The translations under genes were made by a program, and so were the position numbers. This document shows positions 8,771 through 58,855 of a stretch of DNA of 64,000 bases, piece after piece. Under the pieces are notes generated by a model. The model had not been told where the DNA came from and ran no database searches. It was given only the letters and a program-made list of their open reading frames with translations. Positions within the stretch are counted from its first letter, which is position 1; each line of letters begins with the position of its first letter. Origin of the DNA: Bacteroidota bacterium (lineage in GTDB: Bacteria > Bacteroidota > Ignavibacteria > UBA10030); the NCBI GenBank assembly GCA_049523215.1, contig JBEKNC010000010.1, positions 663-64,662 of the forward strand, written 5' to 3'.

Positions 8771-8977
8771 CTGGTGTCCCGATGCACATCGTGTATCGGG
8801 ATGAAAAGGGAATTTCGTAAACCCCGCCGTTGGCGGGATAATGCGAAAGCTGCCCCGCAACTGTAATTCCGATTTTGCTTAACGCAGAATTGTATCTTCA
8901 ATGGTGAAAGTCACTGTAGCGCCCAAGGTGCCATGGGAAGACGAATTGAAGATCGGAAGAGCCAGGAGACCTGCCAG
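8771..8977 (+). ncRNA. Cobalamin (B12) riboswitch
   Basis: Hallmarks AGGGAA, GCCCCGCAACTGTAA, GTCACTG, GGGAAG, AGCCAGGAGACCTGCC upstream of a TonB receptor. Confidence 0.93.
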
Positions 8978-36018: not shown

Positions 36019-36077
36019 AAGATCCTCCTTACGTTGGTTGATAAAAGAACTAACTACAGAATTTAATGCTCTGAAAG

Positions 36078-36106
36078 ATGATACAGAGTAACCTCTCAAT
36101 TGTCAA
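36078..36106 (-). promoter_or_regulatory. Promoter for the small basic ORF
   Basis: TTGACA-N17-TATCAT with TG extension. Confidence 0.8.
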
Positions 36107-36128
36107 GTGTCTGTGCCACAAAATCCTG

Positions 36129-36157
36129 TTGCTCTGCGGGGACTTTTTATCTATATT
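36129..36157 (+). promoter_or_regulatory. Promoter of the nested tRNA unit
   Basis: TTGCTC-N17-TATATT. Confidence 0.7.
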
Positions 36158-36177
36158 TCAATATGTTCCGTGTAAAT

Positions 36178-36354
36178 GCTGAAGTAGCTCAGTGGTAGAG
36201 CAGTCCCGATAATTTCATGCTGGTGTAGCTCAGTGGTAGAGCAGCGGTTTCGTAAACCGCAGGTCGTCGGTTCAAGTCCGACCACCAGCTCAGAAAGACA
36301 ATGGAAATTATCGGGATAAACCGCAGGTCGTGGGTTCAACTCCCACCTTCAGCT
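36178..36354 (+). other. Outer anticodon-less tRNA-Thr shell enclosing an intact tRNA-Thr
   Basis: 5' half 36178-36203 (acceptor plus D arm), 3' half 36317-36354 (variable, T arm, acceptor); 13-bp IR arms 36204-36216 and 36304-36316. Confidence 0.85.
36219..36290 (+). tRNA. tRNA-Thr(CGT)
   Basis: Complete cloverleaf: GCTGGTG/CACCAGC, GCTC/GAGC, GCGGT-TTCGTAA-ACCGC, GTCGG-TTCAAGT-CCGAC; CCA not encoded. Confidence 0.96.
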
Positions 36355-36375
36355 CAGAAGACAGTTTTCGTGTTT

Positions 36376-36400
36376 AATCCGCCATTGTGCGGATTTTTTT
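36376..36400 (+). terminator. Terminator of the tRNA unit
   Basis: AATCCGC / GCGGATT plus T run. Confidence 0.8.
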
Positions 36401-36428
36401 ATCTTTTACTGTTAACAGAAGATAAATA

Positions 36429-36992
36429 ATGTCATTTCTTGAAGTTTTTCTCATTGCACTCGTTTTAGCTTCGGATGCATTTGCAATTTCCATGAGTGCA
36501 GGATCAACTGGTGTAACGACAGAACCGCGAGCAATGCTGCGGTTGTCCTTTCATTTTGGACTTTTCCAATTTTTAATGCCTGTTCTTGGCTGGCTTGCAG
36601 GTTTAAGCATTGAACCCTATATCCAGTCATTCGATCACTGGATTGCGTTCGGACTACTTCTGTGGGTTGCTGTGCACATGATTCGATCTGCCCAAGCTGG
36701 TAACGAACGTGCAGTCCAACAGGATCCGAGCCGGGGAATGATGCTGGTTATTCTCTCTGTTGCGACAAGTTTGGATGCGTTAGCGATTGGATTGAGTTTG
36801 GCGCTATCGCAAGTATCCATCTGGTATCCTGCTGTTGTTATCGGTATCGTTACAGGCGTTGTGTCATTTATCGGCATTTTACTTGGTCGGCAGTTTTCCA
36901 AGAAAATTGGTAAGCGAGCGGCTGTAGCGGGAGGCGTTCTACTCGTTCTCATAGCCATCAGGATCCTTTTGGTTCACCTTCTTCCTCTTTAA
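36429..36992 (+). CDS. mntP: Manganese efflux pump MntP
   Basis: Duplicated DAFA / SLDALA motifs, FGLFQFLMP. Confidence 0.9.
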   Translation: MSFLEVFLIALVLASDAFAISMSAGSTGVTTEPRAMLRLSFHFGLFQFLMPVLGWLAGLSIEPYIQSFDHWIAFGLLLWVAVHMIRSAQAGNERAVQQDPSRGMMLVILSVATSLDALAIGLSLALSQVSIWYPAVVIGIVTGVVSFIGILLGRQFSKKIGKRAAVAGGVLLVLIAIRILLVHLLPL

Positions 36993-58563: not shown

Positions 58564-58593
58564 TTAGGATGAAGTTCTTTATAGAAATTTAAG

Positions 58594-58680
58594 CGGAGAG
58601 AGTGGGATTCGAACCCACGGTACCCTTGCGGATACACTACCTTTCCAGGGTAGCCAATTCAACCACTCTTGCATCTCTCC
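58594..58680 (-). tRNA. tRNA-Ser(GGA)
   Basis: GGAGAGA acceptor, CTACC-CTGGAAA-GGTAG, long variable arm, GTTCGAATC. Confidence 0.96.
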
Positions 58681-58689
58681 GATACTTCA

Positions 58690-58718
58690 AATATACTGAA
58701 TCAAGAATCTTTTTCCAA
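58690..58718 (-). promoter_or_regulatory. Promoter of tRNA-Ser(GGA)
   Basis: TTGGAA-N17-TATATT. Confidence 0.65.
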
Positions 58719-58768
58719 TGGCCGGGGAAATATTTCAAATTTCCAAATTTGCACGGAACGTAGTTAAG

Positions 58769-58855
58769 CGGAAGGGGAGGGATTCGAACCCTCGATAGCC
58801 TTGCGGCTATTCCGGTTTTCGAGACCGGTCGATTCAACCACTCTCGCACCCTTCC
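58769..58855 (-). tRNA. tRNA-Ser(CGA)
   Basis: GGAAGGG acceptor, CCGGT-CTCGAAA-ACCGG, long variable arm. Confidence 0.96.

Follow-up and report, generated by a model that had tools for sequence, protein, structure and literature searches.

A tRNA-Thr gene nested within the halves of another in an Ignavibacteriota genome: probable relic of a selfish element that invades tRNA genes

The stretch of DNA described here, hereafter the window, comprises 64,000 nt of a metagenome-assembled genome (MAG) of the Ignavibacteriota from a peat-type habitat. At positions 36128-36402 it contains an intact tRNA-Thr(CGT) gene lying between perfect inverted repeats of 13 bp, which in turn lie inside the two halves of a second tRNA-Thr. 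This nested layout, which we call a doll, with the outer halves as its shell, was confirmed to the base by sequence, ARAGORN and Rfam, in the order and at the coordinates given by a first-pass annotation of the same DNA. On the plus strand, the outer 5′ half (36178-36203; 26 nt, gctgaagtagctcagtggtagagcag) corresponds to tRNA-Thr positions 1-27 and holds the acceptor strand GCTGAAG, the D arm and G27 of the resident gene. It is followed by the left repeat arm TCCCGATAATTTC (36204-36216), whose first 7 nt are the conserved core of a family described below, and by an AT spacer (36217-36218) that constitutes the 2-nt leader of the inner gene. The inner, functional tRNA-Thr(CGT) (36219-36291) has the acceptor allele GCTGGTG/CACCAGC, scores 75 bits on the Rfam tRNA model (RF00005, cut-off 29; E=3e-16) and is assigned the same identity by ARAGORN. 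Its trailer, (C)AGAAAGACA, is similar to the resident trailer CAGAAGACAG and together with an ATG occupies 36292-36303. The right repeat arm GAAATTATCGGGA (36304-36316) and the outer 3′ half (36317-36354; 38 nt, taaaccgcaggtcgtgggttcaactcccaccttcagct) complete the structure, the latter corresponding to tRNA-Thr positions 36-76 and containing TAA, the 3′ strand of the anticodon stem, the T arm GTGGG/CCCAC, the acceptor strand CTTCAGC and the discriminator base.

A putative promoter read from the sequence precedes these elements on the plus strand (36128-36159), with TTG near 36129-36131 and TATATTTC at 36152-36159, spaced by ~20 nt. The Bacteroidota-type promoter consensus is TTTG/TAnnTTTG, which both elements resemble, and the block is conserved in the relatives L020, L013 and L155; a sigma-70 scan called no promoter on this strand. 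The unit ends in an intrinsic-terminator-like hairpin (36376-36395) with a T run (36376-36402 in all, plus strand). Aligned to the inner copy, the outer tRNA-Thr lacks exactly CGGTTTCG, that is nt 28-35 including two anticodon bases, and differs at seven positions, which amount to two compensated pairs in the acceptor stem, one compensated pair in the T stem and one T-loop base; both the missing 8 nt and the three compensated pairs had been pointed out in the first-pass annotation. Neither ARAGORN nor Rfam calls the outer copy as a tRNA, and a complete anticodon arm is absent from it. The 13-mer of the repeat arms has no further zero-mismatch copy in the 64-kb window. In RNA folding of 36170-36402, the doll is the predicted minimum-energy structure (-84.7 kcal/mol, z = -5.2 against shuffled sequences), in which an outer acceptor stem of 7 bp and the outer D arm are followed by a repeat helix of 14 bp, then by the inner cloverleaf and finally by the outer T arm.

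The nesting recurs in independent assemblies and in RNA; the metagenome and metatranscriptome evidence consists throughout of assembled contigs. In the peat metagenome X1, separately built contigs cover 36076-36254 and 36238-36460 with zero mismatches at depths of 23 and 25, each crossing one junction into unique sequence, and run X4 agrees with these junctions at a depth of ~240-400. A finished long-read chromosome of a related MAG (OY969585, corresponding to L020/L114) displays the same nesting. Metatranscriptome contigs (X24, X23) cover 36174-36217, 36193-36246 and 36217-36330, and a further RNA contig from run X24, covering 36238-36404, represents a variant with a T-loop insert (44 nt in place of 10). 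RNA coverage in X24 ends at ~36404, at the terminator. Since the RNA contigs span the shell and the inner tRNA and end at the terminator, the doll is made as one precursor; shell and inner tRNA are co-transcribed, with DNA carry-over in metatranscriptomes being possible. The first-pass annotation had proposed a single promoter-to-terminator unit and had argued against an assembly artefact, and these contigs, together with the finished chromosome, bear out both views.

An uninterrupted version of the outer gene is present in close strains. Contigs from the metagenomes X5, X20 and X2 match 36100-36203 with 5 mismatches, located in the promoter region and the outer 5′ half, and then continue with CGGTTTCGTA as an intact gene. 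Contigs from the same metagenomes match 36317-36470, comprising the outer 3′ half, the terminator and the start of mntP, apart from 2 mismatches that both fall in the terminator loop, and before the match they read ..TCAGTGGTAGAGCAGCGGTTTCG (..GGTAGAGCAGCGGTTTCG; intact-gene segment AGAGCAGCGGTTTCG). Depth over both repeat arms is zero in all three, and the flanks of these empty-site strains are ~97-98% identical to the window, with the same promoter/terminator/mntP locus. The site is therefore polymorphic, the filled allele being found in X1, X4, the window and L020 and the empty allele in X2, X5 and X20. As the outer tRNA is uninterrupted at the same locus in close strains, the window allele is that gene carrying 113 bp (36204-36316) in place of nt 28-35.

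Both acceptor alleles are in use elsewhere. The outer GCTGAAG/GTGGG allele is a working tRNA-Thr(CGT) in other Ignavibacteriota (L001, L011 and L192), and the inner GCTGGTG allele is the working copy in L022, L023 and L155. Given that the outer allele is live elsewhere and intact at the same locus, compensation arose while both were functional genes. The compensated pairs are thus an ordinary difference between two functional alleles and no sign of selection on the shell. Recombination between a shell half and a heterologous inner gene would give a mismatched acceptor stem, and dolls with such unlike alleles may thereby be stabilised.

At the same locus in relatives, the inner tRNA is identical at 73/73 positions in L020, L013, L021 and L155, and the shell changes at about the rate of the flanking intergenic DNA. 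In L020, the shell has U8 changed to A, one altered anticodon-stem base, a 30-nt T-loop insert and a changed T stem. The L013 shell shows G4>A and G27>A, and its whole 3′ side has been lost by deletion between direct repeats AGCTCAGAA. L021 and L023 lack the 5′ half, and L021 is also mutated in the right repeat arm and the acceptor 3′ strand. By these comparisons the shell behaves as a pseudogene under neutral drift.

Nested tRNAs of this kind are not confined to one locus. A scan of a genome collection for two identical D arms 5-35 nt apart yielded 19 species-representative genomes, and a scan for a D arm fused to TCCCGAT gave dozens more true cases among chance matches. At least 24 dolls were found in which an intact tRNA lies within the halves of a cognate tRNA, with inverted repeats of 8-18 nt reaching its ends; the compact architecture of ~110 bp recurs in 24 loci. 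The isoacceptors are Thr-CGT, Thr-TGT, Met, Phe, Lys and Ile, and the lineages include Ignavibacteriota, Chlorobi, Bacteroidota, Patescibacteria/Saccharibacteria, Elusimicrobia and others. Multi-level dolls occur in L009 (three stacked 5′ halves), L012 and L019 (stacked), and L110 (two 3′ shells). Thr-CGT dolls of the Fibrobacteres-Chlorobi-Bacteroidetes (FCB) group share one left junction, GAGCAG|TCCCGAT, without exception, and wherever the right arm is intact its junction reads ATCGGGA|TAA(A/T)C; that arm is truncated in L140. These junctions are constant at more than one locus, and all combinations of outer and inner alleles are found: relative to L110, the two are swapped in L122 and L140, and in L201 the outer sequence equals the inner one. 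The extension of the repeat past the 7-bp core varies by lineage and is still complementary (AATTTC, GCC, GCCGC, GCACA, AACTTTT). The first-pass annotation had suggested looking in relatives for the same nesting with covariation of the outer stems and repeat arms; nesting and complementary arms are indeed present, and the outer halves decay. Downstream of the right repeat arm in the Phe dolls of Saccharibacteria-like genomes (L005-L007), a conserved hairpin, GGGGCA(A/G)G-CTGAAAA-TTTTACCCC, displays the Phe anticodon loop on a new, longer stem.

The core of the repeat arms is a signature of a larger set of disabled tRNA copies. The palindrome TCCCGA(T)-loop-(A)TCGGGA, closed by a loop of 2-14 nt, stands in place of the anticodon arm in numerous disabled tRNA copies (Thr, Lys, Met, Asn and Phe types) from many phyla. 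Some of these shells are 5′ fragments located 25-80 nt upstream of a live tRNA, at times in tandem arrays (at least ten in L154, three in L211, and two each in L157, L191 and L355), and others are 3′ fragments downstream of a live tRNA; many have no acceptor strand at all. Hairpin inserts of 23-45 nt, often with CCGAAGG, follow GGTTC in the T loop of outer 3′ shells (L020 2848-2920, L021 2853-2925, L023 2895-2965, L162 and L192). GC-rich perfect palindromes (CCCGCC..GGCGGG, CCCGCaaaaGCGGG, CCTGCCTGCCGGCAGGCAGG) occupy the D loop of disabled copies in L122, L126, L191, L142, L166, L173, L204 and L113. With palindromes also in the D and T loops, all three tRNA loops can be plugged by hairpins. 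Among other organisms in X1 and X13, the region equivalent to 36200-36360 of the window contains a palindrome inside a palindrome (TCCCG-TCCCGAC-gta-GTCGGGA-CGGGA), a closed TCCCGAT-gga-ATCGGGA, and an arm swapped for a different palindromic unit, GCAACGTTGCCAACGTTGAA.

The window itself contains a second palindrome of this family, TCCCGATGCAC-atc-GTGTATCGGGA (8777-8801, strand not assigned), which is closed, has a long stem and lies in an intergenic gap. Between it and 8837 come TTTCGTAAAC, which reproduces the Thr-CGT anticodon loop and a further 3 nt exactly, and a CCCGCC-gtt-GGCGGG hairpin. On this resemblance, 8777-8837 may be an old, heavily decayed relic of a tRNA-Thr shell.

Rfam, run at E<=10 on the region and at the gathering threshold on 15 related loci, gave no family other than tRNA for any shell. 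A scan of genome contigs with ATCGGGATAAACCG was too unspecific, with 120 mostly random matches. In viral contigs, the arm-plus-leader pattern gave one chance match inside an open reading frame (ORF), and the palindrome-junction pattern GGTAGAGCANTCCCGAT gave only chance matches in coding regions. As these scans of viral contigs returned no true cassette, there is no sign of phages carrying them. The two-D-arm pattern identified one phage locus (L101 1529-1640, an IMG/VR contig), where a tRNA-Lys 5′ fragment ending in the anticodon loop (..CTT) is separated by 4 nt from a complete tRNA-Lys(TTT) and no inverted repeat is present. L101 represents a simpler kind of partial tRNA duplication, borne by a phage.

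Unsupervised clustering of the ORFs near palindrome loci identified one non-housekeeping family common to several lineages, a small protein of ~80-95 aa that consists of a bare GIY-YIG catalytic domain (Pfam PF01541). Patescibacteria-like and Chitinophagaceae genomes have these ORFs squeezed in between tRNA modules, directly next to disabled copies. In L167, L211, L113 and L354 an intact tRNA-Lys is followed by the ORF and then by a palindrome-bearing shell that starts at the D loop, and in L166, L115 and L189 a shell reaching to the T stem is followed by an ORF that begins in the T loop. L346 has one ORF in the anticodon loop of a shell and a second after GGTTC of another shell, followed by an intact tRNA-Met. 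The insertion position of the ORFs in L166, L115, L189 and L346 is the same as that of the T-loop hairpin inserts described above, and lies within the T-loop motif cut by the phage nuclease SegB (see below). Tandem units of ORF, shell and terminator are present in L154 and L355. In the Chitinophagaceae MAG L154, an extreme case, the at least ten tandem 5′ shells are followed by a live tRNA-Lys and then by four such units with palindrome shells, at a period of ~405 nt; two of its shells still score 41-43 bits as tRNA in Rfam. Relatives with both palindrome and GIY-YIG ORF are L113, L115, L154, L166, L167, L189, L203, L211, L343-L346, L348, L354 and L355. One lineage only, L348, has a gene for a resolvase-family serine recombinase (399-1007), ~500 nt upstream of the GIY-YIG and shell unit.

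A palindrome lies within 120 nt after the stop codon in 13 of 20 distinct GIY-YIG ORFs, and either downstream or within ~200 nt upstream in 17 of the 20. The stop codon is often formed by the tRNA's own U8-A9-G10 or by the TAG of GGTAGAGC (L346 1738/2043, L166 5660, L154, L355 1743 and L354 1758); with its stop on bases of the tRNA, the ORF is seamlessly fused to the next tRNA or shell. Searching from the protein side, with a three-protein GIY-YIG alignment that gave five metagenome loci, retrieved the arrangement in four of these five, and it was present in all three database homologues chosen only for the size of their surrounding sequence. Homologues of the small protein in the database number more than 3,000, mostly on short contigs.

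Among the closest known systems is SegB, a free-standing GIY-YIG homing endonuclease of T4-like phage tRNA clusters. It cuts inside tRNA genes at the motif RAWTSGAAC, equivalent to the T loop, and causes tRNA and segB to be amplified in tandem through recombination at microhomology (PMC13096335). The palindrome family shares with it nuclease ORFs placed after GGTTC of the T loop and tandem arrays of ORF and shell, and as in a cassette of the SegB kind, filled and empty alleles of one site co-exist in the population. A nuclease gene inside or beside the insert is found in the palindrome-bearing relatives and is absent from the window copy. SegB is also phage-borne and has an added DNA-binding region, whereas the family proteins are chromosomal and comprise the catalytic domain alone, and SegB has not been described with nested tRNAs or with palindromes in place of an anticodon arm.

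Taken together, the locus is probably an orphan, nuclease-less relic of a selfish element that invades tRNA genes and brings its own replacement tRNA; it would be DNA-level debris, not a designed RNA. The first-pass annotation had offered, as one of two possibilities, a fossil of palindrome insertion followed by tRNA re-insertion, and was largely right, although it did not foresee membership in a family linked to GIY-YIG genes. In the proposed course of events, the resident tRNA-Thr(CGT) gene (GCTGAAG...CTTCAGC) would have lost nt 28-35, and the 113-bp cassette, consisting of the 13-bp palindrome arms around a replacement tRNA-Thr(CGT) of another allele with its 2-nt leader and ~12-nt trailer, would have taken their place. 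The old promoter and terminator would then transcribe the whole doll, and the inner tRNA, presumably freed by RNase P and 3′-end processing enzymes, would do the decoding, leaving the outer halves as a dead, drifting shell.

As to who cuts and where, how the tRNA came between the palindrome arms and how the cassette inserts, we infer the following. The GIY-YIG nuclease of the family would break tRNA genes as SegB does, and the break would be repaired from an element-bearing copy that supplies a fresh tRNA, with the disabled copy bearing the palindrome. Repeated breaks and out-of-register repair between live tRNA and shells could lead to tandem arrays and deeper nesting. A doll might form in three steps: a full-length shell arises with a closed, long-stem palindrome, such as exist at 8777-8801 of the window and in L166 and L167; the tip of the hairpin breaks; and the live tRNA next to it, together with a few bases of its flanks, is copied in by templated repair. 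If correct, this route would explain why the arms are perfectly complementary and the cargo is always the cognate tRNA.

Several points weigh against this interpretation. No GIY-YIG gene was found in the 64-kb window or in any nested-doll locus of FCB and Patescibacteria using an iterated local profile on all six-frame ORFs, so that the link to the nuclease depends on the shared palindrome, and no cleavage site is known for these GIY-YIG nucleases. There is no target-site duplication and no second copy of the cassette in the window. Two recombinations could in principle have restored the empty allele from a filled one, and the contig-based nature of the evidence, including possible DNA carry-over, applies here too. 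The doll RNA is made, folds very stably and has perfect repeat arms, which leaves some probability for a role at the RNA level, and the route by which a tRNA would come to lie between palindrome arms is conjectural.

The alternative that survives best is a local accident without any dedicated element, in which a palindrome was born in one of two tandem tRNA-Thr genes, its hairpin tip was broken and a template switch onto the neighbour followed; any hairpin nuclease would suffice for the break, and the resemblance between loci would reflect general instability of tRNA genes. A state of the expected kind exists in L155, where a 5′ half, a closed TCCCGAT-tat-ATCGGGA and a partial 3′ part lie at the same locus upstream of an intact tRNA whose leader ends in ATAATTT, and microhomology-type junctions are common (e.g. 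AGCTCAG in L192 and L013). However, the same 7-bp core occurs in different tRNA species from Patescibacteria to Bacteroidota, always in the anticodon arm, and adjoins one protein family, which is unexpected from random palindrome birth, and we regard this explanation as unlikely.

Slightly less likely still, and not supported by the evidence, is a selected RNA device, the other possibility raised in the first-pass annotation, in which shell and repeat helix form a tRNA-mimic scaffold. The scaffold might control maturation of the inner tRNA, or it might be a decoy or an antidote against some nuclease that attacks tRNAs. The GIY-YIG protein could be this nuclease, in which case the RNA would work much as in type III toxin-antitoxin systems, and a prokaryotic Slx1-like GIY-YIG domain fused to a TrmH-type tRNA methylase exists (PMC1564403). 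Co-transcription of shell and inner tRNA, the very stable doll-shaped predicted fold and the lineage-specific repeat extensions that remain complementary would fit such a device, as would the arrays of L154, L355 and L211, whose anticodon-less tRNA-like units, terminator and nuclease gene resemble the ToxI/ToxN layout. On the other hand, near-identical strains carry the empty site, shells lose U8, acceptor pairing, T loops and whole halves without consequence while the inner tRNA is invariant, the acceptor strand is wholly absent from many of them, the window has no nuclease, and two live alleles account for the compensated pairs. The comparison with ToxIN is one of layout only: the units in L154, L355 and L211 are decaying tRNA fragments of varying extent, and the window has a single unit and no nuclease.

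A scar left in the anticodon loop by a tyrosine-integrase island or prophage that was later almost wholly deleted is very improbable. Crossover by integrases is often in the anticodon loop, with displaced fragments of the tRNA left behind (Islander, PMC4383910), and the outer 3′ half does begin in that loop. The likeness to tRNA islands and prophages extends to the tRNA-gene target, often at the anticodon loop, and to the retention of a working tRNA together with a displaced fragment. Yet islands restore only the 3′ part of the gene, with a single direct-repeat fragment left over, and bring an integrase along with kilobases of cargo, whereas in the window a whole tRNA is inserted, both old halves remain on either side of it, the flanks are inverted repeats and the insert is 113 bp. 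The same architecture in 24 loci and the lack of true matches in viral contigs also speak against a scar, and no integrase or island cargo is present within ~5 kb. The genes in that range on either side encode a YbaK-like protein, MgtC/DUF4010, a peptidase, SpoIIE, a deacetylase, MntP, AtpD, AtpC and a nucleotidyl transferase, all of them housekeeping. A chimera of two strains' tRNA-Thr alleles created by assembly or binning, to which the exactly repeated D arm (the kind of repeat that breaks short-read graphs) and the presence of both alleles in the same habitats might have lent themselves, is hardly credible given that two runs have unitigs of equal depth reaching over each junction into unique sequence, and given the same doll in OY969585 and in RNA contigs.

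Other known systems share single features with the locus. In archaeal split and intron-containing tRNA genes, Nanoarchaeum has half genes with complementary leaders, and introns are marked by bulge-helix-bulge motifs (PMC4090602, PMC4390854). The topology is alike, in that a 5′ half is followed by sequence complementary to that preceding the 3′ half and the break is at or next to the anticodon loop. Archaeal halves, however, are joined by splicing endonuclease and ligase, whereas those in the window lack 8 nt, reside in a bacterial host and are decaying. No bulge-helix-bulge is evident in the predicted 14-bp helix, which is continuous, no search having been aimed at the motif or at a splicing endonuclease. 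Joining the outer halves gives a tRNA without C28-G35, bases that the empty-site allele has, so excision restores no complete tRNA, in agreement with the view of the first-pass annotation that the insert is not an intron. A group I intron was rejected, since the 113-nt insert is a tRNA, no intron is matched in Rfam at E<=10, the exons lack 8 nt and the intron core (P3-P9) needs at least 200 nt. ARAGORN found no tmRNA, and the Rfam match to it was limited to 18 nt of the T arm (16.6 bits against a cut-off of 47). In the engineered tRNA scaffold of Ponchon and Dardel, a laboratory design, cargo RNA reportedly replaces the anticodon arm via an extended helix and is protected by the intact scaffold; at the window locus, in contrast, the cargo is the functional part and the scaffold is debris.

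Miniature inverted-repeat transposable elements (MITEs), foldback elements, REPINs and Rickettsia palindromic elements likewise insert into genes, encode no transposase and end in short inverted repeats whose outer core is conserved. Terminal inverted repeats are present here (13 bp and perfect, with a 7-bp core common to the loci). Within the 64 kb of the window, the 7-bp-core palindrome has two copies and not dozens, namely the one cassette (36204-36316) and the one closed palindrome (8777-8801). Compared with the empty allele, 8 nt are deleted and none duplicated. Targeting is confined to the anticodon arm of the tRNA species that the cassette itself carries. IS200/IS605-type hairpin elements and REPINs were rejected for lack of a HUH-family transposase gene and for too few copies, an integron attC or Xer/dif module because the arms are not complete recombination sites, RNA-level ligation with retro-insertion because the cargo retains an unprocessed trailer and has no CCA, and a CRISPR-like array because the "spacers" are identical. 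Another tRNA locus of the window, a tandem pair of tRNA-Ser genes (GGA, CGA) at 58593-58855 on the minus strand, is ordinary, with no shells or palindromes nearby.

At least one defining feature fails for each of the closest known systems, and the window element is thus a member of none of them. It appears to be a selfish element that targets a tRNA gene and carries the replacement for it, and there is a fair chance that fuller study could show it to represent a distinct class. In a full-text literature search no account was found of bacterial tRNA genes lying one inside another, of anticodon arms replaced by palindromes or, phages apart, of tRNA fragments that enclose GIY-YIG genes, and nested bacterial tRNAs and the linked element family are apparently undescribed. 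More tentatively, and at somewhat less than even chances, we propose that unrecognised self-nesting tRNA-replacement elements exist in several phyla, in which the break is probably made by a single-domain GIY-YIG nuclease, a fresh tRNA arrives via the signature palindrome, the old gene is left as a shell, and repetition gives rise to multi-level dolls and arrays. In a bolder version, the palindrome-bearing shells would act as RNA or DNA antidotes against the nuclease.

Single-copy tRNA genes are usually deemed to be among the most static parts of bacterial genomes. Here, within one population, a foreign allele has split such a gene and taken over its function, leaving a legible fossil. What makes the locus deserve attention is the widespread, undescribed phenomenon to which it leads, and not any RNA device. 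If the proposal is true, many puzzling tRNA fragments and pseudo-tRNAs that get in the way of annotation, above all in Patescibacteria and Bacteroidota, would be explained, and thousands of small ORFs annotated as "GIY-YIG nuclease family" would acquire a likely job. The SegB principle of nuclease-driven remodelling of tRNA loci would extend from phages to cellular chromosomes, and the shells, by preserving earlier alleles, would provide a natural record of horizontal tRNA allele replacement. On chromosomes, the family would then be what SegB is in phages, and would drive, so far unnoticed, the turnover of tRNA alleles and the horizontal replacement of tRNAs.

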